A stretch of DNA of 42,634 bases. It comes from an uncultured Candidatus Saccharibacteria bacterium. Its GTDB lineage: Bacteria > Patescibacteriota > Minisyncoccia > Minisyncoccales > PWPS01. Shown piece by piece: positions 22,982-38,844 of the stretch (positions are counted from its first letter, which is position 1; each line of letters opens with the position of its first letter). The notes below the pieces were generated by a model. The model was given only the letters and a program-made list of their open reading frames with translations, did no database searches and had not been told where the DNA came from. The stretch covers positions 1 to 42,634 of the forward strand of contig CAZJEE010000006.1 of assembly GCA_964544985.1 (NCBI GenBank), in the 5' to 3' direction. The position numbers and the translations under genes are program-made.

Positions 22982-24995
22982 TAAAAAAAAATTGTTTTCG
23001 TTATCTACAAAAATAATCTTTTTTATTTTTCTTTTTGTATTAGTTCCAATTGCCGTAGATGGTTTTGCTCTTGACGCAGGAATGATGGCCCTTGATGCTA
23101 TTTCAGAAAAAACAGGTCCTCTAATGACGTTATTTATGGGATCTTACTTTTTCTTTGCAATTAGTCTTATGGGTTTATGGATTAGCACAACCCTTCTCCA
23201 GGCAGTAATTGATATTAGTCCAGAGGCTCTAACTGTAATGGGGGGAAATGCATCAGCAATGGTCCAAGCCGGATGGAGCTTTACTGTTGGAATAGGGAAT
23301 ATGCTCCTTCTTATCGCCTTCGTAGTTATTGCATTAGCAACCATTTTAGGATACGAAAATTATCATCTGAAAAAACTTCTTCCCCGATTAGTTGTCGTCG
23401 CCTTCTTAATGAACTTTACTCTACTTTTTGTTGGACTGGGAATTGATGTCTCTAACTTTCTTTTTAATTCAGTTGCAAAACAATTTTCAGAAGACGGAGG
23501 AAATATACTTTATAATGCCATAAAACCTCTTCTTACTTTGGGTGGAGAAATTAATTTAAAAATTTTTGGTCTTTTTACCAGTATTGTTGTTGCTCTTCTA
23601 GTTCCCTATTTAAATGTTGCAATTCAAGTGGGATGGATACTCTTTTTCCCTACACAGATTTTACCAATTATAATACAGCTTCTTGTTTACGGAATGATTA
23701 TGTTTTTGATGACAGGGACTTTCTTATTTTATTTCGTTGTTTTTGTCGCACGCATATTTATTATCCAAATACTGGCGATTCTTGGTCCTTTGGCCTTCTT
23801 TTCTTTAATCTTCTCTGAAACACAAAAATGGTGGAAAAAATGGTTGGAATACCTTATCCAGTGGCTTTCTGTCGGAGTAATTTTTATTTTTTTAATGTAT
23901 GTCGGTCTTGCTCTTGCTCCATTAACAAGTTCTTTAATTGAACCAGCTGCAGAAGATGCTCCTGCTTTTATTTCAAAGCTTCTAAGTAGCAATCTCATAG
24001 CTCACCTTATTCTTCTTATCTATTTTATGGTTATTCTTAGTGTCGTTAAAAGCTTTATCCCTGATCTCGCAAAAGCAATTGTCGCTCAAGGAACAGCACT
24101 TATTAAAGCAGCTGTCCCTTATGCGGGAGCAATTGGAAGCGGTGGTAAAAAATATTATCAACATCAAATGTCAGAAAGCAAGCCCTTCCAAGATATGATG
24201 TCTGATTGGTCTAAGTCTATCCCCACAACTCCAGGAGGAGGAAATGTTTGGGAAAGAGCTAAAAGTTTTGCTTTGAGAAGAATTGGCACAAGGTTGGGTC
24301 CAGAAATAAGAGAAGCTGAAAAGAAATCCGCTAATGAATTTGCAGATAAATTAAAGGGAGCTTCTCCAGAAAAAATGGCAAATGCTTACAGAAGTGCTAT
24401 GGGAGGAACAGCGGGAGTAGAAAAATTAGGAGCAATTCTTGCCGCCAAAGAGGCTGGTGTTGTGACGGAATTTTTAGAAGGTCTTAAAGACGTTTTAACT
24501 AGTAATGAATTTGATCAAATTTATAAAAAGGCTGAATCTTCTGGTCTAAAGAGTGACCTTAAAAGAGCTCTCCCTGTTCATTTTATAGAACATGAAACAA
24601 GAGGCCTTTCGGGTGCTAATAAAGAACAAAAAATTAAAGAACTTGTATTGGGAAATCTTAAGGGAGATAAAATGGAAAAAGCAGCACCTCAAATCGTTGA
24701 CGCAATAAATAAAGGAACCACAGAACAGCAGAGTCTTGGTCATCAATTTATGAAAGCAATTATGGAGTCTCAAGACACCTCTTATTTAAAGAACTTCATC
24801 AAGGGGTCTAGTGGTGTCAGTGGTGTTAAAGTAGCAGATGAATATCTTGGTGCGTGGGCTGCAGCAGCAGGAAGAAATCCAAACAACCCGGAACATCTCT
24901 ATAATGCACTAAAAGAAATTAATCCTCAGATGGCAAAAGAGATAAGAACTAGACCTGGTAATATTCTTCTTAATGTAAAACCTCCAACACCATAA
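22971..24995 (+). CDS. VirB6/TrbL-like polytopic membrane protein with a roughly 300-aa soluble C-terminal domain (674 aa)
   Basis: Many TM helices. The segment KLLPRLVVVAFLMNFTLLFVGLGIDVSNFLFNS is paralogous to one in the 25479 ORF. Its position next to VirB3/VirB4-like genes supports the call, which rests on architecture and context. Confidence 0.55.
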   Translation: MLIDKKKLFSLSTKIIFFIFLFVLVPIAVDGFALDAGMMALDAISEKTGPLMTLFMGSYFFFAISLMGLWISTTLLQAVIDISPEALTVMGGNASAMVQAGWSFTVGIGNMLLLIAFVVIALATILGYENYHLKKLLPRLVVVAFLMNFTLLFVGLGIDVSNFLFNSVAKQFSEDGGNILYNAIKPLLTLGGEINLKIFGLFTSIVVALLVPYLNVAIQVGWILFFPTQILPIIIQLLVYGMIMFLMTGTFLFYFVVFVARIFIIQILAILGPLAFFSLIFSETQKWWKKWLEYLIQWLSVGVIFIFLMYVGLALAPLTSSLIEPAAEDAPAFISKLLSSNLIAHLILLIYFMVILSVVKSFIPDLAKAIVAQGTALIKAAVPYAGAIGSGGKKYYQHQMSESKPFQDMMSDWSKSIPTTPGGGNVWERAKSFALRRIGTRLGPEIREAEKKSANEFADKLKGASPEKMANAYRSAMGGTAGVEKLGAILAAKEAGVVTEFLEGLKDVLTSNEFDQIYKKAESSGLKSDLKRALPVHFIEHETRGLSGANKEQKIKELVLGNLKGDKMEKAAPQIVDAINKGTTEQQSLGHQFMKAIMESQDTSYLKNFIKGSSGVSGVKVADEYLGAWAAAAGRNPNNPEHLYNALKEINPQMAKEIRTRPGNILLNVKPPTP

Positions 24996-25012
24996 TAAAA
25001 AATATAGAAATC

Positions 25013-25432
25013 ATGCTTAAAAAATACACGCAAAAAGAATATCATGATTTGTACGAATCTCTCCCTAAAAAAATGCAACATCTTTTTTGGGAAGATGATA
25101 TATCAAATCGTATTGAAAAGATATCTGAAAGATTTGAATTAACTAATAAAGAAATATGGCGAATTACTGAAATTATTGCTCATCTTTTTTTGGGAATTCT
25201 TCCTCCCGAGCACATCAGCTCAGTGATTCAAAAAGAAATTATCTTAAAAGAAGATTTTTCCAAGAAACTTGCGACCGAAGTTATCCGCTTTATAGTTTAT
25301 CCAACTCAACATCTTTTGAAAGAGGTTTATAGTGCCGAAGACTTTCAAAATATTGGAACAGAAAAAATCAATGAAGCAAAAAAGTTTAATAATAGAAAAG
25401 AAGAAGATCTTTATAGAGAACCCATAGATTAA
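25013..25432 (+). CDS. Small soluble protein ending in LYREPID (139 aa)
   Basis: Paralogous to ORF 26990. Both share the ...G-x-LP-x-E... core, a KK-rich tail and a C-terminal YREPI motif. No known family recognised. Confidence 0.6.
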   Translation: MLKKYTQKEYHDLYESLPKKMQHLFWEDDISNRIEKISERFELTNKEIWRITEIIAHLFLGILPPEHISSVIQKEIILKEDFSKKLATEVIRFIVYPTQHLLKEVYSAEDFQNIGTEKINEAKKFNNRKEEDLYREPID

Positions 25433-25478
25433 AAATGTCCTTGACAATAGGGCTATTAAAATAATAAACTGAAGGGAG

Positions 25479-26987
25479 ATGATAAAAAAAATAAAAGAAA
25501 AAAAGATAATTCTCGGAGTTCTCTTGGTTTTAATGATTGTCTCTCTCCCTCTTTTCTTCGCTGACGGAATCACAAATATTGGAGAGCTAACCGCCAGTGC
25601 AATTACTGGAGTGTTTCTCCTTACTACAGCTACTATTTCTTTCGTTTTTTCTACATTTGCAGATTGGTTTTTAAGAATAACTCTTAGTCCAGAATTTATT
25701 AATGTTCCTTATACTCCTGGAGGGGCAGGAGGAGGAAATGAATTTGTCTTCTATGGATGGAGTATTGTGAGAGATTTTGTTAACATGTTCTTTATTTTAA
25801 TTTTAATAATCATCGGACTTTCTACATCATTACAGTTTGAAACTTACAAGTGGCAAAAAACACTGCCTCGTCTTGTTCTTGTTGCGCTCCTTGTAAACTT
25901 TACTCCCGTCATCTTGGGAGTGTTTATCGATTTTACTAACTCGATGATGAACTACTTTGTCGCATCTATTGCCGATGAATCATTTTTTATCGCCAGAATA
26001 GGTAGGCTTTACGAAACCATGGCTTCGAATTTAGCGATTGCCAAATGGACAAGTTATACTGGAGAAATAATCACTCCAGTAGCAATGATGGTTATCTTTA
26101 CTTTGTTCAATCTTTTTACCGGAATTATCTATTCTCTTTACGGAGCTTTATTTGCCTTACGCTATGTCGCTATCTGGCTTCTTGTTATTATCTCTCCTTT
26201 TGGTCTTTTCTGTTATATCCTTCCTGCAACACAACCATTTTTTAAAACATGGCTCAGATGGTTTGTTGGGTGGTGTATTGTAGGAATTACGGGAGCATTC
26301 TTTCTCTATCTTGGAGAAATAATGTTTCAGGCAAGTGCTAGTAATATAACTGAAGAAGTAATGATGCCATCAGTTACTAAGTATCATGAAATGGATATCG
26401 GAGCGTTCATTGAAGTTTTCCCACTCCTCATACCCCTTTTCTTTATCTTCTTTGGTTTTTTAGTTTCTCTATCTATTGCGTCCCTAGGATCAAAAGGAAT
26501 TATTGAAACCTTTCAAAGGGCATCCGGCTCTGCAAGAAAAGCAGCTTCTCAACTGCCCGGATCTACTTTTAAAGAAAAAACAATGGCCGCTTCTGCTGCT
26601 GTTAAAAATGCTTTTAGCCCTGGACCCATGTCTTCTCCGCTCTCTTCGGGAAAATCTTCAGATAAACCTTCTTTTGGTTCTGCAAAAAGTGGAATGCTCC
26701 ATAAGCGTGATATATCAGCTGGTACCTCTAATTCAGGTATAGGAATGAGAATGCCAATAACTGAAACAGCATCTATAGCAAGCGGAGGAATGGAAAATGC
26801 AACAAAAAATATTGCCGCTGAATTTAGTGAAAAAGCAAAACAAAAGCCAGATTCATTAAAGATTGACTCTGCTGGAAAACAACAAAATCAAGCCGACAAA
26901 AAATGTAGTGGTTGTGGAGCAACTGTTAGTGGTGACGCCACATTTTGCCCTCTCTGTAGAAAAAATGTATTACCACAAAAAGAATAA
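25479..26987 (+). CDS. Second VirB6/TrbL-like polytopic membrane protein with a disordered tail and C-terminal zinc ribbon (502 aa)
   Basis: KTLPRLVLVALLVNFTPVILGVFIDFTNSMMNY is paralogous to the 22971 ORF. It has a Ser/Gly/Ala-rich tail and a terminal CSGCGATVSGDATFCPLCRKN. Confidence 0.55.
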   Translation: MIKKIKEKKIILGVLLVLMIVSLPLFFADGITNIGELTASAITGVFLLTTATISFVFSTFADWFLRITLSPEFINVPYTPGGAGGGNEFVFYGWSIVRDFVNMFFILILIIIGLSTSLQFETYKWQKTLPRLVLVALLVNFTPVILGVFIDFTNSMMNYFVASIADESFFIARIGRLYETMASNLAIAKWTSYTGEIITPVAMMVIFTLFNLFTGIIYSLYGALFALRYVAIWLLVIISPFGLFCYILPATQPFFKTWLRWFVGWCIVGITGAFFLYLGEIMFQASASNITEEVMMPSVTKYHEMDIGAFIEVFPLLIPLFFIFFGFLVSLSIASLGSKGIIETFQRASGSARKAASQLPGSTFKEKTMAASAAVKNAFSPGPMSSPLSSGKSSDKPSFGSAKSGMLHKRDISAGTSNSGIGMRMPITETASIASGGMENATKNIAAEFSEKAKQKPDSLKIDSAGKQQNQADKKCSGCGATVSGDATFCPLCRKNVLPQKE

Positions 26988-26989
26988 AC

Positions 26990-27418
26990 ATGAATAAAGA
27001 AATAGACATTATTAACTTACAAGAAGAATATCCGGAATTTTTTGAAGCATTCTCTTCAGAGATTATTGAATTTGTCCTAAGCAAAAAAACTTCACAAAAA
27101 ATTGCCAATATCTGTATTGAAAATAAAATTACCGAAAAAGATTTGGTAGAAGGCATTGCTTTTCGCATCACCTATGTAATTTTTGGAAAACTTCCTAAAG
27201 AAAATCTTATAATAACCCTTAGAGACGGGCTAGAAATAAGTGAAGAAAAAGCAAAAAAGATATCAGAAAGTGTTGATAAAATAATTTTTTCCGAACTAGA
27301 AAGAATAAAGAATAAAAAAGATAAAGATATTGAAAAAAAAACCATTAAAAATGAAGAATCAGCTAAAATTGTAAAAGATGATTTTAAGAAAGACGCCTAT
27401 CGAGAGCCGATAGGATAA
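26990..27418 (+). CDS. Small soluble protein ending in AYREPIG (142 aa)
   Basis: Paralog of ORF 25013, in the same position immediately after a VirB6-like gene. Confidence 0.6.
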   Translation: MNKEIDIINLQEEYPEFFEAFSSEIIEFVLSKKTSQKIANICIENKITEKDLVEGIAFRITYVIFGKLPKENLIITLRDGLEISEEKAKKISESVDKIIFSELERIKNKKDKDIEKKTIKNEESAKIVKDDFKKDAYREPIG

Positions 27419-27423
27419 CTATA

Positions 27424-27834
27424 ATGCAATATAAAGTACCAAGACACGTAGATTATAAAGCCAAGATTGTTGGCCCAGCAACTTTTTCACAACTGTTATA
27501 TATCGGCGCAGCTGGTCTTGTCGTTCTTTTTTTATATTTCATTATGGGAGGATCTCCTTTTTTCCTTCCTATTGCAATTATCTTGGGAGCAGGAGGAGTA
27601 TCGCTCGCTTTTCTTCAAGTTGCAGGACAACCCCTTCCGGAATATGTTAGAAAAATGATTCTTTTTAGCATCTCTTCAAGAGAATACATCTGGGAGAAAA
27701 AAATTATTCCTCTAGAAGAAGCTTTTCCAAAAAGAATGAAAATTGTTCCCGAAGAAACAAAAGAAGAAGGCGGTCCTAAGTCAAAGAAAAGAGGAAGTCT
27801 TGGAGATATCGCTAGCAAGATAGAAACATTTTAA
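27424..27834 (+). CDS. PrgI-family (VirB3-like) T4SS membrane protein
   Basis: An N-terminal MQYKVPRHVDYKAKIVGPATFSQLLYIGAAGLVVLFLYF followed by a second TM helix is the typical PrgI/VirB3-like signature of Gram-positive-type T4SS. It lies directly upstream of VirB4. Confidence 0.7.
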   Translation: MQYKVPRHVDYKAKIVGPATFSQLLYIGAAGLVVLFLYFIMGGSPFFLPIAIILGAGGVSLAFLQVAGQPLPEYVRKMILFSISSREYIWEKKIIPLEEAFPKRMKIVPEETKEEGGPKSKKRGSLGDIASKIETF

Positions 27835-27857
27835 TTTTTTCTTCTAACTAAAATATT

Positions 27858-28484
27858 ATGGCGCCAAAAAGTGCACAAGATTTTATCCCCATCAAGCAAG
27901 TAAGAGATGGTATTATAATCCTTAAAAACAAGGGACTTAGATCAATTCTAATGGTTTCTTCTATTAATATTGCTCTTAAATCAAGAGACGAACAAGAAGC
28001 CATTCTTTATCAATTCCAATCCTTTCTAAATTCTCTTGATTTCCCCTGCCAGATTGTAGTGCAATCAAGAAAAACAAACATCACCGGCTATATCGAAAAG
28101 ATAAAAAAATTAGAAGAAGAGCAGAAAAATGAACTTTTAAAACAGCAAACTGCTGGTTACAGAGAATTTTTGGAAGAATTTGTTACTAGAGAGTCTATTT
28201 ATACTAAAAACTTTTTTGTTGTTGTGCCTTATTCTGTTCCCGCAATAGGAGGTTCAAAAAAAACCACAAAAGGAACCATTAATTTAAATGAAGATAGTTT
28301 TCAGAGAGGAAAAGATCAACTTTACCAAAGAATGGAATTTGTTGCTCTTGGTCTTCGTCGTTGTGGTTTACACTGTGCTCCTCTAACGACAATTGAAGTT
28401 ATCGAGCTTTTCTGGTCACTCTTCCATCCGAAAAGTGCGGAGAGTGGATATTATCCAGAGTTTCCTGAAGAGTTAACATCATAA
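27858..28484 (+). CDS. VirB4-family N-terminal domain encoded as a separate ORF (208 aa)
   Basis: FIPIKQVRDGIIILKNKGLRSILMVSSINIALKSRDEQEAILYQFQSFLNSLDFPCQIVVQS matches the N-terminal region of Gram-positive VirB4-type ATPases. It stops 4 nt before the ATPase ORF, in a different frame. Confidence 0.6.
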   Translation: MAPKSAQDFIPIKQVRDGIIILKNKGLRSILMVSSINIALKSRDEQEAILYQFQSFLNSLDFPCQIVVQSRKTNITGYIEKIKKLEEEQKNELLKQQTAGYREFLEEFVTRESIYTKNFFVVVPYSVPAIGGSKKTTKGTINLNEDSFQRGKDQLYQRMEFVALGLRRCGLHCAPLTTIEVIELFWSLFHPKSAESGYYPEFPEELTS

Positions 28485-28488
28485 AAAT

Positions 28489-30285
28489 ATGGGATTATTA
28501 GAAGATTTTAAAACATTAATTGGAAAAGGAGAAAACAGTTCTTCTTCTGAAGAAAAAACAAACTCGCTGAGAATCGTGGATGTTATTGCTCCTTCTTCAA
28601 TTCAAGAACTCCAAGGACAACTCCGCGTAGAAGAAAAGTTTTCAAGATCGTTTTTTGTTTTTTCTTATCCTCACTACATTACCGCTGGATGGGTTTCTCC
28701 AGTTATCAATCTTAATGTCCAACTAGATATATCTTTCTTTATTCATCCAGCAAGTACGGAAGATATTTTAAAGAAACTTCGTAAAAGATTAACAGAAGTA
28801 CAGGCAGAAATAATGGACACTGAAGAAAAAGGGCTGGTAAGAAACCCCATGCTCGAGACTGCTTATCAAGACATGGAAGAGTTAAGAGATCGCCTACAAT
28901 CCGCGCAAGAGAGAATGTTTTACTTTGGTCTTTACATCACAATCTATGGAGATTCTGAAAAAGAGATAGAAGAAACAGAAAGCGTATTAAGGTCTATCTT
29001 TGAATCAAAGGTTATTTATGTCCGTCCTGCTCTCTTCCAACAAGCGGCTGCTTTTACCAGTACATCCCCTTATGGAATGGATCTTTTACAAACTCATACT
29101 CCGATGAACACCGAACCACTTTCTAGTATCTTTCCTTTTATCTCTTTTGATCTAACGTCTTCTGATGGAATCCTTTACGGAGTAAATAAGCACAACCGCT
29201 CTCTTGTTCTCTTTGATCGCTTCTCTTTAGAGAACGCGAACGCAGTAATCTTTGGTACTTCTGGTGCTGGAAAATCTTATCTTGTTAAGCTCGATGTGCT
29301 TCGTTCTTTAATGAGTGGAATAGAAGTTATTATTGTCGACCCTGAAAACGAATACCGGACTCTTGCCGAGTCTGTCGGAGGTGCTTTCTTTAATATATCT
29401 CTTGGTTCATCACACCAAATTAATCCTTTTGATATTCCTATTCCAGGAGAAGGAGAAAGCGCTGCAGAAGTTTTAAGAACAAACACAATCAATCTTGTTG
29501 GACTCTTGCGTATTATGTTGAAAGGTCTCGGTCCTGAAGAAGATGCTCTCATCGATCAAGCAATTACCGAAACTTATGCTGCAAGAGATATCACCCCCGA
29601 GAGTGATCCTAATACTTGGGCGGATAAAGTTCCTTTACTTTCTGATTTAGAACAAATTTTAGAGTCTATGGAGGGAACAAGGCCACTTGTATTGCGCCTG
29701 AGAAGATTTACTCAAGGAACATACTCTAACTTTTTTAATCATCACACTAATATTTCGGTTGAGAACAATCTTACGGTTTTTGGTATTAGAGATCTTGAAG
29801 ACGAAATGAGACCTATCGCAATGTTTATTATCATGCGCTATATCTGGAAAACGGTCTCCTCTTCTCTGAAAAAAAGATTATTTGTGATTGATGAGGCTTG
29901 GCTGATGATGCAGAATGAAGATGGAGCATCTTTCCTTTTCGGTCTTGTAAAGAGAGCCAGAAAATACTGGCTTGGAGTTACTACAATTACTCAAGATGTT
30001 TCTGACTTTATGCAATCTGGTTACGGAAAACCAATTGTTACTAACTCAGCGCTAAAAATACTTTTAAAACAGTCTTCAGCAGTAATCGATATGATCCAAA
30101 AAGTTTTTAATCTTACAGAAGAAGAAAAATTCATTCTTCTTGAAGGAGAAGTAGGAGAGGGAATTTTCTTTGCTGGACAAAAGCACGTAGCAATCAAGAT
30201 AACCGCGTCTTACACAGAAGATCAGATTATTACCTCTTCGCCGGAAGAAATAGAAAAAATGAAAAAAGCAAAAGCTCGGTTTTAA
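28489..30285 (+). CDS. virB4: VirB4-family T4SS ATPase (middle and C-terminal ATPase domains)
   Basis: Walker A GTSGAGKSY, Walker B RLFVIDEAWLMM, and downstream TTITQDVSDF. It starts with the YP...GW segment that normally follows the VirB4 N-domain. The 208 + 598 aa total about 800 aa, the usual VirB4 length. Confidence 0.85.
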   Translation: MGLLEDFKTLIGKGENSSSSEEKTNSLRIVDVIAPSSIQELQGQLRVEEKFSRSFFVFSYPHYITAGWVSPVINLNVQLDISFFIHPASTEDILKKLRKRLTEVQAEIMDTEEKGLVRNPMLETAYQDMEELRDRLQSAQERMFYFGLYITIYGDSEKEIEETESVLRSIFESKVIYVRPALFQQAAAFTSTSPYGMDLLQTHTPMNTEPLSSIFPFISFDLTSSDGILYGVNKHNRSLVLFDRFSLENANAVIFGTSGAGKSYLVKLDVLRSLMSGIEVIIVDPENEYRTLAESVGGAFFNISLGSSHQINPFDIPIPGEGESAAEVLRTNTINLVGLLRIMLKGLGPEEDALIDQAITETYAARDITPESDPNTWADKVPLLSDLEQILESMEGTRPLVLRLRRFTQGTYSNFFNHHTNISVENNLTVFGIRDLEDEMRPIAMFIIMRYIWKTVSSSLKKRLFVIDEAWLMMQNEDGASFLFGLVKRARKYWLGVTTITQDVSDFMQSGYGKPIVTNSALKILLKQSSAVIDMIQKVFNLTEEEKFILLEGEVGEGIFFAGQKHVAIKITASYTEDQIITSSPEEIEKMKKAKARF

Positions 30286-30335
30286 TTTTTAAATTTTGTA
30301 TTATAATAAATAAATTACTATATAAAGCTAAATCT

Positions 30336-33300
30336 ATGAAAAAACTTCTTTTTTTGTCGCTATTAATTGCTATTTTTGTTGTTACGCCGTTTTTTGCTTT
30401 TTCACAGGAAATAATTTACCCAAGTATTCCTGGCGTTGCCGCTCCACAAGAATTTTTAAAAGAAGTTCAGTCACAGGAAGAGATTCTTCCTCTTTTTATG
30501 ACCTATTTTTTCCACCTGTTTTTAGTAGTTTCAATTGCTGTCGCCGTCAGCATCATGCTTTACGGTGGCTTTATTTACATTATTTCCTCTGGTGATCCAG
30601 AAAAAAGAAAACATGGAAAAAGTTGGATGCTTAGTGCGCTTCATGGATCTTTGATAGTTTTTGCTTCTTATTCTCTTTTATTTACTCTCGACTCTCAACT
30701 TGTTCTTTTTCAACAAAGAGAGATAGATAAGACGGGAACTGAAGGGAAGGTGGATTTAAAATGGGAAATAAAGAATGTTTATTATCAAATACCTTTTGGA
30801 CTTTTAATTGAAGACGCTATATTAAACGAAACCGCACAAAGCAAGCTTTACGATGTACTTAATGCAACATACAAAGCAGAAGATACTTCAAACGCAATAG
30901 AGCAAGGAAGTAAACAACTTTTAGAAATTATAGAGAAGTGCCCTGATAAAGAACCATGTTGTGGAGAAGGTGGAGACATTAACTCTCCTCCTATAAATAA
31001 AAAAGTAACTCCAAAGGAAGAAAAAAAAGCTCCTTTGTGGGTACTTGAAATAAATAAATTATTTGAAAAAACCGGCATCACAGATTGGGAAAAGCCAGAA
31101 AACGAAGTAATACTCACTTCTGAAAAAATTGATAAATCTCTTTTTAGTGAAGATTATGTTCAGATTAATCAACCAAATCTATTTAAGATAGCAGGCGTGG
31201 TGCCTCCTCTTGTCGATGGCAACGGAAAGCCAATCGGTTCTATTACATTTTCTTTTGGAGAAGAGTACACTGGGGGATTACACCGAGGAACGGATATCTC
31301 GGCGCCTCTTGGTAGCACAATTCAATCTACAACCGAGGGCTTTGTAATTTATGCAGGCGACATGGGAGGTACGGCAGGAGGTGCTGTCTCTATTCTTTAT
31401 CACGACGAAAAAACCGATACGCATTTTATTATTCATTATGTACATCTTGACATCAATAGTATCACACCTACGGCTGGAAAAAAAATATCCCAAGGGCAAA
31501 AGATAGGGGAAATAGGGACATCTGGAAGGGTTTTTATATCAGACAAGGATAAGGGACTTCTTCATTACGAGGTAATACTTCTTGATAAAGACACTGACAT
31601 TGGGCCAATAATAAGAGGAGAGTGTCTTTATACTTGCGGAAAAGCAATCGATCCCGTAAAAAATGGGTTTCTTAAAATAAATACGGATAAAACAAGTTAT
31701 CAAAATATCTTTTTTGCCTCTCTCTTTACCGCTTTTAATCCAACAACATCTCTTCTAACTTTGTCTTTTGTGATTCTTATCCTTCTTGCTTTCTTATTTT
31801 TATCTATCAAAGTAACTGCTCTACAGAAAAAAGTTCCTTTCACAAGAATTAGAAAAAGAAGTTTTACTTCTATTGTTTCTATTGTTCTTGTGCTTTCTCT
31901 CGCCCTTTCATCTCTTCCAATTAGTTATCTTCAAAAATCACCTTCCCTTGTTCTAAAAGAAAGTATTAAAATGCAAAATCAAACAGAGCTTTCATTTAGT
32001 CATCTAAATTTTAATATTGTTTTTGCAGAAAATAACGAAGGAAATTCATACTGGCAACACGTTTGGAAAGAAACAAAAGAAGGTGCTGTGTTGGGTGGAG
32101 CGACAGGAGCCACGGTTGGAGGTTTAGCTCTAGGTTATTTAGGGGCAGTTTTTGGAGCAGGAGGAGGAGGAGTACTGGGATTCGGAGTGGGTGCTATTCC
32201 TGGAGCAATATTAGGAGGAGCTCTTGGAACAGCAGTTGGCGGAGCAGGAGGTGCAATATTGGGAGGAGTAGCAGGAGGGCTTGTAAGAGGAGGATGGGCT
32301 CTTTTCACTTATGAAGAAGCAGAAGAAAAGTGTCCTGACAATAGTTCTCCTCAAATAGATCCTTGTGGAGAAGGCCAAACTGAAGTAGAACAAATAACAG
32401 ATCCTGATACCGGGAAAACCATTTATTGTTGTGAGGAGGAAGAAGAGGAAGAAGATACTTTTACAGAAAACTGTGAGTTTTATAAAGACGAATGTCCAGA
32501 CGGCTGTAATCTCGGAAATGACTCAACTGATTGTGGAGGAAATACTCCTTCACCATCTCACCTGTGTTGTTGTTGTGAAGAAGAAGAAGAAGAAAAATGT
32601 GGCAAAGAAGGAGAAGAATGTGATAATGAGAATCTATGTTGTGAAGAACTAAAATGTGAAGATGGAAAATGTATTGAAAAAGAGGAAGGAGAATGTTCCG
32701 ATGGCCTTGAAAAAGAAAGTGAAACTACTTGTAACCAAAAACAACTAGAAAGAGGATGTGAACCAGAGACTGTAAATGGGAAAGATATTTGTTGCTGTAA
32801 AGAAGAAATAGACTGTTCTCAGTTGTTTGGAGAAGATTATAGTCTTACCGATGAACCATCATGTTCTGAAGGACAAGCTAAACATGGCTGTGAAGAAATT
32901 CAAGATGAAGAAGGAAATGCCATAGGTTGTTGTTGTCCAGAAGAACCATTTTGTCTAGAAGACGGATGTGATGTCGCAGAAAAATGTCCTGAAGGAACTC
33001 TTAAAACCGATGAATTAGATGGAATGCTTTGTTGTTGTGAAGAGGAAGAAGAAGAGGAAGAAGAATGCCCTAAATGTCCTGATATTGCTTCTGCTGTACA
33101 AGCTAAAATAGGAGAAATAGAAGGACACATGACACAGCTTGCAAAAGACTTAGAAGCTCTTCTTTTAACAAAAGAACCTATTAAAGAAGACCTATATCAA
33201 TTATACAAAGTAGTGATGCTTAAAAGTTTAGGATATAAACAGGTTTTTGGATATAACTCTTTACTCCTTGAGAAAAGATACTATGAAAGAGGAGAGGTGG

Positions 33301-34451
33301 TTATTGATACCGATAGAGAAGTATCACAAATTGGAAAATACACCTGGGATTGGAGCCGCTGGATTAACAACATCCTTTATCGCATTGAATTAGGAGGAAG
33401 AGTAATCGAAGAAAATGATTCAGCAACTTTCTATCTAAGAATGCCTGAGTCAAAGAAGATTGTAGAAGATGCACTAAGATTGGCTAAAGAAGCAAAAGCT
33501 AATGATATTCAAAAGATAGGAAAAGATATTAGTGTAAAGAAGCCACAATCTCAGAACATATTCCAAAAAGTTTTCTCTTTGGTAACTGGAATATTCTCTG
33601 ATCTTGGATCAAAAGAAACTCTTGCTCAAACTGACATGAAAAAACTTCAAGATTATTTAGATGAACACAAAATAGATCCTGCAAAAATATCAGCTACTGA
33701 GTTTAACGAAATTGTGAAGAAGCTAGGAATAAGTACAGACCAAGGCCAAACACTAAGTGTCTTACAAAGAATGTCCCCTAGTGAATTTTTAGAATGTAAT
33801 ATGGAAATACCAATAGGAGAGGCTTTCGAACTAACATGGGCACATCTAATCGAGTTATTAGACACAATAGATAAATATGTTGAAGAAGGAAAGAAGCTTA
33901 TCGAACAACAAGCAAAGATGAATGAACTTGCTCGTCCTTGTGATTGTCCTTGTGAGGGAGACGAAAAGTGCCCTAATACTTGCGGGGCATGTAAACTAAC
34001 CTGTGATTTAAATGCAATAAAAGCTGCTCATCAAGAAGTTCTAAAAACAAGAGAAAAGATGAAAGAAATTGCCGCACACATTGTACTTCTTACTGATGGT
34101 CACTTTAATACCCCTACTGAAAATCTCTGTGACTCTCTAAATGAAGATGTAAGGGATGACGCAGAGAAGGTTTTGTGTGCCGGTGGAGGAAAAAAACTTA
34201 TCAGCAAACATGAATTAATTACTAGAAAGCTTAACTACTCTAGATTTAGTTTCGATGAATGTATCACTCGTCCAGAACACTTAGAGGATGTGTTGGGGGG
34301 AAAAAGAGCAGGAAAGCTTCCTTTCTTTGGGCCACTTGTTGAAGAAAAGGGAATCCCAAGATATACGAAGACAATAGTAAGCGGTTCTCGTGTCAACACA
34401 AGCGACTTTAATTGGTTCTGTTGTTCCGATTCAAAATTAGAAGATAAATAA
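30336..34451 (+). CDS. Giant modular surface protein: pilin hairpin, M23 peptidase, TM and Gly-zipper segments, poly-Cys/Glu region and a conserved Cys-knot C-module (1371 aa)
   Basis: Signal peptide plus hairpin LYGGFIYIISSGDPEKRKHGKSWMLSALHGSLIVFASYSLLFTLDSQL. M23 motifs LHRGTDISAPLGSTI, HYVHLD and GEIGTSG. Two internal TM helices and a Gly-rich stretch. 38 Cys in residues 666-914. The C-terminal roughly 450 aa is paralogous to ORF 35584. Confidence 0.8.
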   Translation: MKKLLFLSLLIAIFVVTPFFAFSQEIIYPSIPGVAAPQEFLKEVQSQEEILPLFMTYFFHLFLVVSIAVAVSIMLYGGFIYIISSGDPEKRKHGKSWMLSALHGSLIVFASYSLLFTLDSQLVLFQQREIDKTGTEGKVDLKWEIKNVYYQIPFGLLIEDAILNETAQSKLYDVLNATYKAEDTSNAIEQGSKQLLEIIEKCPDKEPCCGEGGDINSPPINKKVTPKEEKKAPLWVLEINKLFEKTGITDWEKPENEVILTSEKIDKSLFSEDYVQINQPNLFKIAGVVPPLVDGNGKPIGSITFSFGEEYTGGLHRGTDISAPLGSTIQSTTEGFVIYAGDMGGTAGGAVSILYHDEKTDTHFIIHYVHLDINSITPTAGKKISQGQKIGEIGTSGRVFISDKDKGLLHYEVILLDKDTDIGPIIRGECLYTCGKAIDPVKNGFLKINTDKTSYQNIFFASLFTAFNPTTSLLTLSFVILILLAFLFLSIKVTALQKKVPFTRIRKRSFTSIVSIVLVLSLALSSLPISYLQKSPSLVLKESIKMQNQTELSFSHLNFNIVFAENNEGNSYWQHVWKETKEGAVLGGATGATVGGLALGYLGAVFGAGGGGVLGFGVGAIPGAILGGALGTAVGGAGGAILGGVAGGLVRGGWALFTYEEAEEKCPDNSSPQIDPCGEGQTEVEQITDPDTGKTIYCCEEEEEEEDTFTENCEFYKDECPDGCNLGNDSTDCGGNTPSPSHLCCCCEEEEEEKCGKEGEECDNENLCCEELKCEDGKCIEKEEGECSDGLEKESETTCNQKQLERGCEPETVNGKDICCCKEEIDCSQLFGEDYSLTDEPSCSEGQAKHGCEEIQDEEGNAIGCCCPEEPFCLEDGCDVAEKCPEGTLKTDELDGMLCCCEEEEEEEEECPKCPDIASAVQAKIGEIEGHMTQLAKDLEALLLTKEPIKEDLYQLYKVVMLKSLGYKQVFGYNSLLLEKRYYERGEVVIDTDREVSQIGKYTWDWSRWINNILYRIELGGRVIEENDSATFYLRMPESKKIVEDALRLAKEAKANDIQKIGKDISVKKPQSQNIFQKVFSLVTGIFSDLGSKETLAQTDMKKLQDYLDEHKIDPAKISATEFNEIVKKLGISTDQGQTLSVLQRMSPSEFLECNMEIPIGEAFELTWAHLIELLDTIDKYVEEGKKLIEQQAKMNELARPCDCPCEGDEKCPNTCGACKLTCDLNAIKAAHQEVLKTREKMKEIAAHIVLLTDGHFNTPTENLCDSLNEDVRDDAEKVLCAGGGKKLISKHELITRKLNYSRFSFDECITRPEHLEDVLGGKRAGKLPFFGPLVEEKGIPRYTKTIVSGSRVNTSDFNWFCCSDSKLEDK

Positions 34452-34458
34452 ACCATAT

Positions 34459-35541
34459 ATGAAAAAAAAGATTCTACTTCTATGCCTCTTTTTCTTCCTT
34501 TTGCTCATTGTGTTTTTTGCCACCGATTCTTTTGTTTTCTCCCAAGGATTAGAAGTTGAATATCCTTCAATTGATAATTATCGTCCAGTAGCTGGTGGGT
34601 CAGAAGAGCTTCCTAATTACTTAAAATACATCATTCGCTTTCTTACACTTAGTGCCGGAATTGTTGTTTTTGGATCCCTTGTTTACGGAGGTTTTTTATG
34701 GATGACATCAGAAGGAGAACCATTAAAAGTTCAAAAAAGTAAAAAACAGATACTTTCTTCGTTTGTCGGTCTTCTGATTATCATCTCTTCTTTTGTTCTT
34801 CTTAATTCTATAAATCCTACCCTTGTTGAGTTGAAAAAAATAGAGATTATTGAAGTAGAAAATGTAAATTCACCAGGAGTTTACCTTTCTTTAAGTGGAT
34901 CTTTCCATGAAAGCAACTTCGAAGAAATGCAAAAAAATGTAAGGAAAATTACTTCTCCTGAAGGAGGGCTGGGAAACTTAAAAGGAAGAATAAAGGCTAT
35001 CCGAATCGTTAACCCTCTAGATGAAAATAATCAGCTAACCTATCGTTATATCGTTGTTTTACATGGCAAAGAAAACTTCAGAGGGCCGTGCGAGTTTATC
35101 TTAACCAACAATTCAGAACACAACTTTACAAACATTAGTGGTGATATTTTAGCAAATACCTTTTCTATTACTGTCTTTAGGGCTGAACGCTACGGACAGT
35201 CTCCGTACGGAAGAGTTGTTGTTTATAACAAGCCTGACTTTGAAGATAAATTTGGATCAGAAAGATTACTTACAACAACAACCGATAACTTCACTCCTTT
35301 AGCCGCCGGGACTCAGCCATGGTCAATAGAAATCGAAGGAGATTACGCAATTATTTTAGCTTCTGGATCAAGCTGGGATCAGATAAATGACGAATGTGTT
35401 GTCTTTGCCTCATCAAAGCCCATCCCTAATCTCACTAGTCATTACATGAACACCTGTAATCCGTTTCTCCTTTCCCACTTCTTCTCGGTCTATGACTCAT
35501 GTGCAACTCACTATGCACTTTTTCCTCTCTTTAGAAGATAA
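34459..35541 (+). CDS. VirB2-like pilin hairpin fused to a roughly 240-aa C-terminal domain (360 aa)
   Basis: Signal peptide, then VYGGFLWMTSEGEPLKVQKSKKQILSSFVGLLIIISSFVLLNSINPTL, then a beta-rich-looking domain (VVLHGKENFRGPCEF, VVVYNKPDFEDKFG). Confidence 0.65.
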   Translation: MKKKILLLCLFFFLLLIVFFATDSFVFSQGLEVEYPSIDNYRPVAGGSEELPNYLKYIIRFLTLSAGIVVFGSLVYGGFLWMTSEGEPLKVQKSKKQILSSFVGLLIIISSFVLLNSINPTLVELKKIEIIEVENVNSPGVYLSLSGSFHESNFEEMQKNVRKITSPEGGLGNLKGRIKAIRIVNPLDENNQLTYRYIVVLHGKENFRGPCEFILTNNSEHNFTNISGDILANTFSITVFRAERYGQSPYGRVVVYNKPDFEDKFGSERLLTTTTDNFTPLAAGTQPWSIEIEGDYAIILASGSSWDQINDECVVFASSKPIPNLTSHYMNTCNPFLLSHFFSVYDSCATHYALFPLFRR

Positions 35542-35583
35542 GTTTTAAGTTGTTTTTCTCTTTTTTTGCGATATAATTTTTAA

Positions 35584-38500
35584 ATGAAATTATTTTCATT
35601 CATAGTAATTTTTCTTTTACTTTTTTCCTTTATTGTCTCTGCTCAAACAGAGGTTATTTATCCGTCTCTTCCAGGAGTTCTCTCTCCTCAAGAAATTGCC
35701 AATCAAGTCCAGTCACAACAAGAGATCTTCCCTCTTTTTATGGCTTACCTTTTTCGCCTCCTTGTTGTTATTTCTGTCTCAGTTTGTTTGTCTATTATCC
35801 TTTATGGAGGACTTCTTTATCTTTTTTCCTCGGGAAATTCCGAAAAAAAACAAAATGCAAAAAGCTGGATATTAAGCGCCCTACATGGCGCTCTTATTAT
35901 TTTTATCTCTTACTCCCTTCTTCTGGCTCTTGATTCTCGACTGATTCTCTTTAATCTCAATGAATTAAAAAAGGGAAATGAGATAGAAAAAATTCACCTA
36001 GAGTGGATTATAAAACAAATTTATTTTCAGATACCGTTTGGTCTTTTAGTTGAGGAAGCAGCAACCAATGAAAATGCTCGCGATAGATTTTATGATATAT
36101 TAGATGCGCTCTACGATGCAGAAGACACCGCAGATGCAATAATCTGGGGAGGAAAAGATCTTTTAGGGATAATAGATGTCTGCCCAATAGGAATGGAATG
36201 TTGTGATGATTTTCCTTTTTGTGAGTGGCCACCGATACCCTTTGCAATACTTCAGCGGGAAAAAGAACCACGTCCTAATTTAAATTGTTTTTGGAACAGC
36301 ATGGCAAAAAGATCTGGAGTTCCTACAATATTAACACGTCCTCCTGTAAAACCACTTCCTTTGGATGCAGTAGATAACTTTCTTGATATAGTAGATACAA
36401 AGCATCATATCAAAATCACAATAAATGAACTTGAAGAAGTAGTAGAAAGTTTTTTTGATCCTCGTATAGAAAAAGGAGATCCTCTTTGGCCTCTTAGAGA
36501 ATCTTTACTGGAAATTATCCGCGAAGTAGATGAAATACTTGCTCATCAAAAAACTGGATTTGATTTAGTAATAGAAGTAAGAAAAATAACAAGAAAAATA
36601 GATTCTCTTATTAATGAATATCCTCTTTTAAAGGAGTCTCCTTTTTGGAATGTTTTAGAAAAAATGTCAGGAGATTGGCTATTAGGAAAAGAGTCATTTG
36701 CAAAAGGAGAATCTGGTTATCGAGATATTCCCTATATTGAACAAGACGATCTTCGATGGAGACATATTAGATATAATTACGATACCCTTTACTCTTCCGG
36801 TTGTCTTTTGGCTTCTACCACAATGGCTCTCAAAAGTTTTGGAATTGATGTGGACATTATCGAAGCATTACGTTTTTCAAAAGCAAATGGACACACAGGT
36901 ATTATGGGTGGAACTCTTTTTCCTTTTACTTGTCATTTTGCACAAACACACGGTTTAAATTGCAAAAGAATAACCAACCCTAGTCCTTCTCATTTCCCAG
37001 AAATGATTAGCTGGCTTGAAAATAAGGGGCCGATTGTAATTGGAGGAATCGGCCATCCTTGGAGTATGGGAGGAGGACACGCCATTCTTTTAACTGGAGT
37101 AGATAGGAATAAAAGAGTAGTATATCTTAACGATCCATCAAGAGCTTTCTTGCATTCAGTAACTTTCGGAGAAGTTTTAAGTAACATGCCTTTTGAACTC
37201 GGCTATATTTCAAAGAAAGAAATTGCAGAGGCTCCTCTTTTTATTGAAGATTCTTTACTATGTGAATCAACGCCTAACAAGATCCTTGGGAGTCATGGTG
37301 GAGGAGATGGCGATTGCCCTGAAATATCTTGTGCTATCCAAATAAAAATCAACGAAATACAGCTTTACATGTTTAAACACCAAAGAGACCTGTGGGTTAT
37401 ATTTTTTGCAAAGGATCTTAAAAAAGAAGGTCTTTATCAACTTTATAAAGCACTGATGCTAAAAAGTTTAGGCATAGAACATCTTCTAAGCTATACAGAT
37501 CTTCTGTTAGAAAAAAGTTATTATAATGAAAAAGAAGAAGTGGTAATTACAACAGACAGTGATTTTACAAAAATACATAGATACAATACTTCTGGAGAAA
37601 ACCCCTATATTTGGAACTGGCAAAAATGGATTAATAATATTGTTTATAAAAAAGATATTGACTGTCACGTTACAATCGCCAACGATCCTGCAACTTTTTA
37701 TTTAAGAAAACCTAGTGCAGACGAGATTATAAAAAACGCCTTAATAGAGCTTGCCTATCGCAGAAAACAAGCAGATATTCAATACTTGGAAATAGAAAAA
37801 TTAATTAAAAGAGACACCACCCTTATCGGTAAAGTAGAGGGTGTTGTTGAAGAAATCTTTAGTGACCCTTATCTAAATATCTTTTTTTCTTCTCCTTTCA
37901 TCAAAAAAGAAATAGGATCTCTTGGTATCTCTCCAGAAATAATTTGGTACTATCAACGTTTTTTAAAACAGTCTTCTCCCTTAGTAACTGCTTCGCTTTC
38001 TCCAAACTACAATGCTATTTTAGCTCTCAATAATTATTTTTTAGAAAACAACATCGACCCACAACTAATTTCTGAAGAAGAACTCCTCAAAATATTAAAG
38101 TTACTAGATATAAGTCCAGAAGAAATATCAATTTCAGAGATCAGAAACACTGACATTGCACATCCCAGCGAATACCTTTCTTGTGGAATGGAAATTCCCG
38201 TTGGAGAAACATTTGAGCTAATATGGGATCATTTTATAGATCTTTTGTTTGTTATGGACGGTTATATTGTGGAAGGGTTATATCTCTTAGAACTTCAAGA
38301 ATATATGAATTATTTAGCTTCGTTTTGCTCCTGTCCGTGCGTTGATCCATGCTGTGAGTGTGATCCTCCATATTCTGGAGCATGCACTCTATTTTGTGAC
38401 AAAGCTACAATTGCCGGTCTTTACTACGGAGAAATTATTCCAACAAGAATGAGAATGCTAAGTATTGCGGAATATATTAAACACTTAACTCAGGGATTTT

Positions 38501-38844
38501 TTAACAATCCTTCAGAAAATATTTGTATTTTAATTAATGAGGATATAAGAGACAACGAAGAAAAAATACTTTGCAATTCTGGTGGAAAAAAGTTTATCAC
38601 AAAACATGAACTAATTACTAGAAAATTAAATTATTCAAGACATGCTCTTGATGAATGCATAACTCGTCCCGAACAAGTGGGTGATATTTTAGACGCAACA
38701 AACGTAGGAAAAGTCACCGTGTTTGGCCCATTTGCTGAAAAAGAAAATCTTCAAAGATATACTAAAACAAAGATAGATAACGTAATGATAAATACTCATG
38801 AGTTTAATTGGTTCTGTTGCTCTGATACACGACTGGAAAAATAG
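35584..38844 (+). CDS. Giant modular surface protein: pilin hairpin, C39-like papain-fold Cys peptidase and a conserved Cys-knot C-module (1086 aa)
   Basis: The first roughly 210 aa and last roughly 500 aa are paralogous to ORF 30336. The middle carries IPYIEQDD...SSGCLLASTTMAL (Cys407), GGGHAILLTGVD (His499) and YLNDPS (Asp517), a C39-like peptidase pattern. Confidence 0.8.
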   Translation: MKLFSFIVIFLLLFSFIVSAQTEVIYPSLPGVLSPQEIANQVQSQQEIFPLFMAYLFRLLVVISVSVCLSIILYGGLLYLFSSGNSEKKQNAKSWILSALHGALIIFISYSLLLALDSRLILFNLNELKKGNEIEKIHLEWIIKQIYFQIPFGLLVEEAATNENARDRFYDILDALYDAEDTADAIIWGGKDLLGIIDVCPIGMECCDDFPFCEWPPIPFAILQREKEPRPNLNCFWNSMAKRSGVPTILTRPPVKPLPLDAVDNFLDIVDTKHHIKITINELEEVVESFFDPRIEKGDPLWPLRESLLEIIREVDEILAHQKTGFDLVIEVRKITRKIDSLINEYPLLKESPFWNVLEKMSGDWLLGKESFAKGESGYRDIPYIEQDDLRWRHIRYNYDTLYSSGCLLASTTMALKSFGIDVDIIEALRFSKANGHTGIMGGTLFPFTCHFAQTHGLNCKRITNPSPSHFPEMISWLENKGPIVIGGIGHPWSMGGGHAILLTGVDRNKRVVYLNDPSRAFLHSVTFGEVLSNMPFELGYISKKEIAEAPLFIEDSLLCESTPNKILGSHGGGDGDCPEISCAIQIKINEIQLYMFKHQRDLWVIFFAKDLKKEGLYQLYKALMLKSLGIEHLLSYTDLLLEKSYYNEKEEVVITTDSDFTKIHRYNTSGENPYIWNWQKWINNIVYKKDIDCHVTIANDPATFYLRKPSADEIIKNALIELAYRRKQADIQYLEIEKLIKRDTTLIGKVEGVVEEIFSDPYLNIFFSSPFIKKEIGSLGISPEIIWYYQRFLKQSSPLVTASLSPNYNAILALNNYFLENNIDPQLISEEELLKILKLLDISPEEISISEIRNTDIAHPSEYLSCGMEIPVGETFELIWDHFIDLLFVMDGYIVEGLYLLELQEYMNYLASFCSCPCVDPCCECDPPYSGACTLFCDKATIAGLYYGEIIPTRMRMLSIAEYIKHLTQGFFNNPSENICILINEDIRDNEEKILCNSGGKKFITKHELITRKLNYSRHALDECITRPEQVGDILDATNVGKVTVFGPFAEKENLQRYTKTKIDNVMINTHEFNWFCCSDTRLEK

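Follow-up and report, generated by a model that had tools for sequence, protein, structure and literature searches.

A putative disulfide-stapled, polyanionic stalk in a VirB2-like-anchored surface protein of a Patescibacteria type IV secretion locus

Introduction

What kind of structure could be built from a bacterial protein segment in which runs of adjacent cysteines alternate with tracts of glutamate? The question is raised by a 1371-aa protein encoded on contig CAZJEE010000006.1 (GenBank assembly GCA_964544985.1) of an uncultured member of the Patescibacteria, or candidate phyla radiation (CPR); the whole stretch of 42,634 nt that was analysed is referred to below as the window. Patescibacteria are host-dependent, and a VirB4-type system with pilin arrays is among the few machines implicated in this way of life (PMC12102498). 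A preliminary description of the window, made from the letters alone, had noticed the segment and considered a metal- or cluster-binding (metallothionein-like) module, a disulfide-stapled spacer or an acylation platform. The protein is a VirB2-like-anchored, M23-domain surface protein associated with a type IV secretion system (T4SS), and we consider, at a probability of roughly 0.55, that its cysteine-rich region is a disulfide-stapled, polyanionic, extracytoplasmic stalk or spacer.

30336..34451, + strand: open reading frame (ORF) of 1371 aa from the ORF list, translated over 30336-34448

The Cys/Glu region and its modules

Residues 666-914 of this ORF correspond to nt 32331-33077 and contain, in the translation, 38 Cys, 60 Glu, 21 Asp and only 2 His among 249 residues. 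A recount thus gave the same 38 Cys as the preliminary description, which had placed the end of the region at 33083, 6 nt too far, as aa 914 ends at nt 33077. Given a Cys background of 0.69% in the other 22 window ORFs tallied, 38 or more Cys among 249 residues have a binomial probability of 2e-38. Cys and Glu codons are nearly all TGT and GAA, as expected at 35% GC, and the ORF list holds no overlapping ORF of at least 80 aa on either strand across the segment. The acidity is local: the tyrosyl-tRNA synthetase (TyrRS) and KsgA of the window have pI values of 9.1 and 9.7. General halophilic acidity was therefore rejected as the cause of the poly-Glu tracts in this window, these being a local feature instead of a proteome-wide halophile signature, and it may contribute in soda-lake relatives (PMC6146748).

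An independent contig from the European Nucleotide Archive (ENA; 8997 nt) is collinear with window positions 28792-37788 at 99.94% identity with 0 gaps, and DNA repeats in the Cys/Glu region are limited to TGT/GAA stretches of at most 34 nt, so that misassembly of the region is very unlikely. The syntenic ortholog (P0002, on Logan assembly locus L021) has the same architecture. A further metagenomic contig, L010 (JGI Ga0208904_1007416), is 99.93% identical to window 33221-37756 from nt 33221 on but begins with 943 nt of unrelated, AT-rich DNA that is fused to it in frame, the breakpoint lying 145 nt past the Cys region; the junction could be either a chimeric assembly or a real rearrangement at the linker.

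The six Cys-Glu blocks quoted in the preliminary description are all present, namely IYCCEEEEEEED at aa 696, HLCCCCEEEEEEK at aa 742, LCCEELK at aa 766, ICCCKEEID at aa 817, GCCCPEEP at aa 863 and LCCCEEEEEEEEE at aa 897, and the intervals between them measure 24-51 aa, close to the 20-50 aa estimated there. When the region is split after every Cys run, six modules emerge, and five of them follow a simple numerical rule, in which n isolated Cys precede a run of n adjacent Cys (C..C..CC, C..C..C..CCC or C..C..C..C..CCCC; hereafter n+n). The modules and the tract that closes the array are as follows.

32331..32432, + strand: M1, 2+2, C-x10-C-x20-CC, aa 666-699, then poly-Glu at aa 700-706; from spacing and a predicted hairpin, QTEVEQIT / TIYCCEE
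32472..32576, + strand: M2, 4+4, C-x6-C-x3-C-x8-C-x10-CCCC, aa 713-747, then a poly-Glu spacer; from spacing, with 4+4 kept in P0002
32598..32672, + strand: M3, knottin-like unit, C-x6-C-x5-CC-x4-C-x4-C, aa 755-779; from spacing, Protein Data Bank (PDB) sequence matches and Foldseek
32694..32798, + strand: M4, 3+3, C-x11-C-x8-C-x10-CCC, aa 787-821; from spacing, with 2+2 at the same place in the ortholog
32814..32936, + strand: M5, 3+3, with an FGEDY motif, C-x15-C-x8-C-x12-CCC, aa 827-867; from spacing, the most widely conserved module
32952..33038, + strand: M6, 3+3, C-x4-C-x5-C-x14-CCC, aa 873-901; from spacing, the same spacing class occurring in P0004, L002 and L019
33039..33065, + strand: terminal poly-Glu tract of 9 Glu, aa 902-910; 7 Glu in the ortholog, low predicted confidence

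By strict count over seven sequences that carry such an array, 30 of 35 Cys runs obey the rule, while randomly rearranging the single-Cys and run tokens of every sequence gave a mean of 4.6 and a maximum of 15 rule-obeying runs in 100,000 trials. The five exceptions are of three kinds: an additional C-x4-C pair behind the CC of M3 (window and P0002), a separate 4-Cys CSWH module in P0006, and a conserved 7-Cys module shared by P0004 and L002. The loose modular repeat noted earlier is real, and its rule is sharper than was described. Cys runs are almost without exception preceded by a hydrophobic residue (L, I, Y or V) and followed by P/E and then E-E, and a C-x-[DE]-G turn recurs behind isolated Cys. 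Modules M1, M2, M4, M5 and M6 resemble one another somewhat beyond composition (z of 2-5 for most pairs), and M3 resembles none of them. The commonest module has six Cys (16 instances) and a length of 35-50 aa.

Conservation and turnover of the modules

A search with the full-length protein returned 18 clusters; among these and the further loci from GTDB genomes and metagenomes, a Cys-rich array stands directly before the CPxCP motif in seven distinct sequences (P0001, which is the window protein, P0002, P0004, P0006, L002, L014 and L019; L007 is the same sequence as the end of L019 and was not counted separately). The six array-bearing relatives come from Candidatus Nealsonbacteria-type CPR contigs. 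Family members from GTDB genomes are labelled Candidatus Nealsonbacteria, with some contigs evidently mis-binned, and the metagenome matches to the family are mostly contigs from soda-lake sediment (PMC6146748). In all other members this position is taken by a strongly acidic Asp/Glu linker devoid of Cys, indicating that the acidic linker is a family-wide feature and that the Cys modules are lineage-specific insertions into it. In agreement with the preliminary description, the paralog at 35584 does not possess the region, aligning to aa 1-250 and 914-1371 only.

Sequence identity to the syntenic ortholog reaches 89% over the N-terminal part and 87% over the C-terminal domain, and drops to 55% across the Cys region and to 31% mid-protein. 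Within the Cys region, 28 of 32 Cys are kept, compared with 94 of 168 other residues (56%; Fisher p = 6e-4), so that the earlier concern that homologs might reveal no conserved Cys positions is not borne out. The ortholog does not contain M1, and at M4 it shows a paired change, with 3+3 in the window and 2+2 in the ortholog, one isolated and one run Cys differing together. A rearranged module in L014 is still 3+3. Orthologs of M5, which bears an FGEDY/W motif, occur in P0002, P0004, P0006, L019 and L014, and the module can still be recognised at 47-49% overall identity. An M1-like module is the first in the window and the last in P0006, L014 and L002, and this change of position indicates that modules have been shuffled while the n+n rule was kept.

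A related pattern was observed between P0004 (L001, NCBI PWKK01000016) and P0007 (L018), which come from different soda-lake samples, have only 4 differences over their first ~550 aa and then diverge completely, P0004 continuing into a Cys-rich stalk and P0007 into a Cys-free acidic linker and a different variant of the C-terminal domain. The pattern points either to a linker that recombines in the manner of a cassette or to contigs that are chimeric.

Predicted structure and the knottin-like module

The 245-aa region, modelled with AlphaFold2 from four sequences, reached a mean pLDDT of 67, with 119 residues at 70-90; the best values lie in M4-M6 (70-82), with M5 at 76-82. In the model the region is mostly a chain of short beta-hairpins; all Cys runs occupy second hairpin strands, and pLDDT drops below 50 in the poly-Glu tracts. 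The Cys modules are thus predicted to form hairpin mini-domains and the poly-Glu tracts to be disordered. Foldseek with the whole-region model returned no significant global match, only local matches of knottin size.

The spacing of M3, C-x6-C-x5-C-x0-C-x4-C-x4-C, falls within the knottin consensus CX3-7-CX3-6-CX0-5-CX1-4-CX4-13-C, and this spacing was found only in M3 of the window protein and in the ortholog P0002. With a 33-aa query covering M3, 14 of 16 phmmer matches in PDB were inhibitor cystine knot (ICK) peptides, at E-values of 0.09-1.7 (best 0.088), including asteropsins, VSTx1, kappa-theraphotoxin-Gr3a, the lobes of DkTx and JzTx-V; in one aligned stretch asteropsin reads CPGEGEECDVEFNPCCPPLTC and M3 reads CGKEGEECDNENLCCEELKC. 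Local Foldseek matches of the region model, with weak E-values of 3.5-3.9, were ProTx-II (6mk4; probability 0.82, TM-target 0.81, rmsd 0.9 Å, 29 columns at 34% identity) and U1-liotoxin (2kyj; TM 0.67), a disulfide-directed hairpin toxin. The matches are each weak and together consistent, so that M3 is best called knottin-like, not a proven knottin. The preliminary description had recognised no family, and the n+n modules indeed have no Pfam, NCBIfam or PDB family.

Comparison with known systems

M3 shares its Cys spacing with knottins such as the spider theraphotoxins (ProTx-II, VSTx1, the DkTx lobes) and the asteropsins, which are acidic sponge peptides, but knottins are free secreted peptides of mostly eukaryotic origin, whereas M3 is one bead in a 1371-aa bacterial membrane protein. 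The 3+3 modules are like three-disulfide mini-proteins in size (30-50 aa) and in Cys count (six). Unlike the ICK pattern, however, the Cys of the second half of an n+n module all stand in one contiguous run. Conotoxin frameworks such as C-C-CC or CCC-C-C-C illustrate that, even in a very small peptide, the members of a run of two to three adjacent Cys can each be bonded to a separate, distant Cys. Conotoxins nevertheless have no sequence relationship to the region, belong to another group of organisms and are free peptides that do not form tandem arrays spaced by poly-Glu. Metallothioneins and the region are alike in their high Cys content, their CC pairs and the absence of a recognised enzymatic function; however, metallothioneins are small and cytoplasmic, have C-x-C/C-x-x-C clusters and ~30% Cys and contain almost no aromatic residues, whereas in the region Cys makes up 15%, C-x-C is absent, the sole C-x-x-C is the CPKC at its boundary, and the predicted position is outside the cytoplasm. 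Its loops of 4-20 aa contain F, Y, L and I, and within aa 666-910 there are no CxxC pairs of the zinc ribbon or zinc finger type.

Database searches gave no family for the modules. Pfam at E-values up to 10 returned no match for the Cys region or for two homologous regions, NCBIfam has no model for the stalk, and PDB sequence searches with the whole region and with M4-M6 found no match, metallothioneins included. Searches by tblastn against plasmids and phages yielded no match either. Protein searches with the window segment or with a four-sequence alignment (Glu runs trimmed) returned nothing and missed the source proteins too, and a HMMER profile scan of 1.84 billion representatives found not even the source proteins, although the same profiles detect P0001, P0002, P0004 and P0006 locally at 1e-57 to 1e-90 (hmmsearch). 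Evidently this region of biased composition is hidden from the word index or from the 50% representatives; since the searches are blind to the source proteins, these negatives say nothing on how widely the modules are spread, and their rarity is unproven. Literature searches on Cys-rich T4SS proteins in CPR bacteria and on Dsb systems in Patescibacteria brought up no relevant work. As read here, the array is of an already known kind, a tandem series of disulfide-rich mini-domains, one of them knottin-like, within an extracellular stalk, and what is new is the n+n grammar and its setting in a VirB2-anchored hydrolase of a CPR T4SS.

A probable disulfide-stapled stalk, and alternatives

Among the options offered by the preliminary description, a disulfide-stapled spacer fits best with the n+n rule, the extracytoplasmic position, the predicted hairpins and the knottin-like unit. 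We infer the disulfide bonding, the pairing pattern and the role as a spacer from these observations. The stalk would consist of six very small, independently folded, Cys-stapled beta-hairpin modules on disordered poly-Glu spacers, five of the n+n type and one with knottin spacing. In the former, the n isolated Cys of the N-terminal loops would be matched by the n consecutive Cys that end the second hairpin strand; in the simplest reading each run Cys would be disulfide-bonded to one isolated Cys, and a module of 35-50 residues would be locked by two, three or four cystines around one hub strand. The array is inserted into the acidic linker by which all family members connect their membrane-anchored, peptidoglycan-hydrolase part to the conserved helical C-terminal domain, and the stalk could serve as a strongly anionic spacer, resistant to proteases and to denaturation, that keeps this domain at a distance from the membrane and wall of a CPR (Nealsonbacteria-like) cell, beside a VirB4-type secretion machine. 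Disulfides are favoured because isolated and run Cys are matched 1:1 and change in pairs between orthologs, because the commonest module has the length and the six Cys typical of three-disulfide mini-proteins, and because the loops hold conserved hydrophobic and aromatic residues, one unit is cystine-knot-like and the region is placed outside the cell. In another CPR surface filament, studied by cryo-EM, paired Cys have been proposed to form disulfides (bioRxiv 10.64898/2026.03.03.709456).

Several points weigh against such a stalk. The seven sequences behind the n+n count are related, so that their modules cannot be treated as independent; P0004 and L002 share a conserved 7-Cys module that departs from the rule; and the knottin matches of M3 are individually not significant (E of at least 0.09). 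Close relatives come from soda-lake sediments that are anoxic and rich in sulfide (PMC6146748), and exposed disulfides might not last there. No gene of DsbA or VKOR type was seen in the window, which gave no thioredoxin-like Pfam match, and its CxxC motifs occur only in zinc-ribbon-like ORFs. The Cys count of the whole protein is odd in 10 of the 20 family proteins tallied.

Alternatively, the modules could be metal-thiolate units (Zn, Fe, Cu, Cd or Fe-S) of a metal-binding or metal-stabilised surface stalk, in which a 2+2 module would form one tetrathiolate site, a 4+4 module two and a 3+3 module a binuclear site or cluster, with Glu adding hard ligands. The density of Cys beside carboxylates, the Cys counts of four and eight that suit tetrahedral sites, the reducing, sulfidic habitat of the relatives that disfavours free disulfides (PMC6146748), the frequent odd Cys counts and the lack of a visible oxidative-folding gene in the window all speak for this possibility, which we regard as rather unlikely, though it deserves to be taken seriously. 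The commonest module has six Cys, the classic number for three disulfides and one seldom met in a metal site; C-x-C and C-x2-C knuckles are missing, and His is limited to two residues; the 4-20-residue loops with conserved hydrophobic or aromatic positions (L, I or Y before the run, FGEDY/W) are unlike metallothioneins; no metallothionein or zinc-finger family matched in Pfam at E-values up to 10; and one unit is cystine-knot-like. Furthermore, a Cys run in the predicted beta-strand would point neighbouring side chains to opposite faces, an arrangement that suits bonds on both sides better than one metal. A metallothionein-like module, as considered earlier, is thus not supported by composition, spacing or location. 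Intermolecular disulfides that cross-link a pilus-like or wall-associated polymer are improbable: the pilin-like N-terminus of the protein and the array of four T4SS_pilin-like genes would suit them, as would the commonness of VirB2 arrays in Patescibacteria (PMC12102498), but the equality of isolated and run Cys in each module, kept through loss and shuffling, argues for partners within the module.

If the region were instead a fast-evolving, low-complexity linker with no defined fold, in which Cys and Glu accumulated by compositional drift or TGT/GAA slippage, its dispensability in the paralog and most family members, its 55% identity to the ortholog against 87-89% in the flanking domains, the gain and loss of modules, the variable length of the Glu tracts and the short GAA repeats would be readily explained. 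The selective conservation of Cys, an n+n rule far beyond the shuffles, modules that are recognisable at 47-49% overall identity and a predicted confidence of 70-82 for M4-M6 from only four sequences make this explanation highly improbable. Cys runs beside membranes are acylated in eukaryotes, and the DNA of the region is rich in TGT/GAA, so S-acylation or an assembly artefact might be considered; the chance of either is close to negligible. The region is predicted to be extracytoplasmic and lies ~130 residues past the last clear transmembrane helix, we know of no bacterial S-acylation machinery of such a kind, and the collinear independent assembly together with six more homologous sequences from other samples makes an artefact very unlikely; the acylation platform proposed earlier finds no support.

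Beyond the disulfide-stapled stalk itself, a further step is possible but tentative, namely that the n+n units are a previously undescribed bacterial "Cys-run hub" mini-domain, in which one strand carries all acceptor Cys, standing beside a genuine bacterial knottin, and that turnover and shuffling of the units at a recombination-prone linker reflect diversifying selection on them, as a part of the CPR T4SS that is exposed on the surface and faces the host. In a more exotic variant, thiolate-carboxylate beads would hold metal or iron-sulfur clusters on the cell surface.

Architecture of the protein

The remaining parts of the protein are listed below.

30336..30710, + strand: signal peptide and two-helix VirB2/T4SS_pilin-like membrane hairpin, aa 1-125; from hydropathy, Pfam PF18895 and paralog alignment
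31278..31580, + strand: Peptidase_M23 domain, aa 315-415; Pfam 49.7 bits against a gathering score of 28.7, E = 4.4e-13
31752..31934, + strand: two extra transmembrane helices (aa ~473-497 and ~511-533) around a Lys/Arg-rich loop; from hydropathy and sequence
32079..32300, + strand: glycine-zipper-like Gly/Ala/Leu segment, aa 582-655, directly before the Cys region; from sequence, weakly hydrophobic (maximum 1.7)
33066..34448, + strand: conserved C-terminal domain starting CPxCPDIA, aa 911-1371; 42% identity to the paralog and 87% to the ortholog

Hydropathy marks hydrophobic segments at aa 1-28, 49-86 and 98-125, a short basic loop lies between the two hydrophobic helices of the hairpin, and the gene stands near virB4, as expected of a VirB2-like anchor. 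T4SS_pilin (PF18895) matches aa 59-110 at 21.1 bits, below the cut-off of 26.6, and the neighbouring ORF at 22154 reaches 38.3 bits with the same model. NCBIfam gave only M23-type families and the Mbov_0395 pilin-like family, the latter at 19.9 bits, below its cut-off of 40. A conserved 130-aa segment lies between the hairpin and the M23 domain. Judged from topology, with a signal peptide, a VirB2-type hairpin and a further helix pair that returns the chain to the outside, everything beyond aa 533 is predicted to be extracytoplasmic, on the same side as the peptidoglycan hydrolase domain. P0004 and P0006 have no hydrophobic segment between the M23 domain and the Cys region.

By eye, the M23 motifs (~31500-31580, aa ~395-415) keep HxxxD as HRGTD, and the HxH position reads LLH (NLH in the ortholog P0002; HLH in P0003 and P0004). 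This could mean a catalytically degenerate domain of the kind found in LytM-type activators. The tract at aa 582-655, 74 residues of Gly, Ala, Leu and Val in which GxxxG spacing recurs (GAVLGGATGATVGGLALGYLGAVFGAGGGGVLGFGVGAIPGAILGG...), is reminiscent of a glycine zipper and may or may not be embedded in the membrane. The C-terminal domain has no Pfam or NCBIfam family; its AlphaFold2 model (pLDDT 60) is mostly long helices, and Foldseek with this model found no PDB fold match, only non-significant helical-bundle noise. The domain has a Cys cluster of its own, PCDCPCEGDEKCPNTCGACKLTC (aa 1202-1223, nt 33930-34020), and a terminal NWFCC motif (Cys at aa 1362-1363, nt 34418-34430), both invariant or nearly so in the family; unlike the stalk, the cluster could be a metal site. 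In P0007-P0013 and P0017 the M23 domain does not lie upstream but interrupts the C-terminal domain after the first ~160 aa of the latter, indicating that the C-terminal domain is bipartite and tolerates the insertion of a whole domain.

The secretion locus and its neighbourhood

The window is chromosomal, with genes for ZnuA/ABC-3, TyrRS, CCA-adding enzyme, PNPase and KsgA, and a monoderm-type T4SS cluster spans ~22154-38844. Four proteins of the cluster have a T4SS_pilin-like hairpin (ORFs 22154, 30336, 34459 and 35584), PrgI and VirB4 lie directly upstream of the ORF for the stalk protein, and the order of T4SS genes is identical at the ortholog locus L021.

27424..30285, + strand: T4SS core genes, comprising PrgI/VirB3-like, a TraC-like N-terminal ORF and the VirB4 P-loop ATPase; from Pfam
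35584..38844, + strand: paralog with a Peptidase_C39_2-like domain in place of M23 and no Cys/Glu region; from Pfam and alignment

The paralog shares 46% identity with the stalk protein over aa 1-250 and 42% over aa 914-1371. VirB4 appears to be split into a 208-aa TraC-like N-terminal ORF (27858-28484) and a 598-aa P-loop ORF (28489-30285), and since the split also occurs in L021 it is not a sequencing error. An even number of Cys per whole protein was tried as a sign of oxidative folding and was rejected; it fits the four pilin-like proteins of the window (4, 56, 4 and 26 Cys) and fails across the family. The stalk protein is similar to the peptidoglycan hydrolases of monoderm T4SSs (PrgK/TrsG/VirB1-like) and to Patescibacteria VirB2-like arrays, and such arrays beside virB4 are a described and common feature of Patescibacteria (PMC12102498). 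It shares with those systems its place after VirB4/PrgI, the pilin-like hairpin and an M23 (LytM-type) domain, with a C39/papain-like domain in the paralog, but differs in that the pilin-like anchor is fused to the hydrolase and followed by a Cys/Glu stalk and a helical C-terminal domain, features that a term search of PMC12102498 did not bring up.

Two adjacent forward-strand ORFs elsewhere in the window, 10013-14494 (1493 aa) and 14542-17523 (993 aa), encode proteins with more than 50% charged residues (E 23-26%, K 17-18%, R ~9%) and no Pfam match. They cause an extreme purine skew (AT up to 0.53, GC up to 0.44) and resemble long charged helices or coiled coils rich in E, K and R. Immediately beyond the T4SS cluster (window 39032-40299), an HTH_28 ORF (164 aa) and a 215-aa ORF without a Pfam match may be the halves of a disrupted transposase or insertion sequence (IS) element.

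Implications for Patescibacteria

The surface components of Patescibacteria are almost uncharacterised, and the family described here adds a conserved helical C-terminal domain, a variable stalk and, in a few lineages, an array of ultra-small, putatively Cys-stapled modules that obey the simple n+n grammar. If the modules bind metal, they would represent a new extracellular thiolate site. If they are disulfide-locked, they would imply oxidative folding on the surface of an anaerobic CPR organism, and would offer a new minimal scaffold for peptide engineering alongside knottins.

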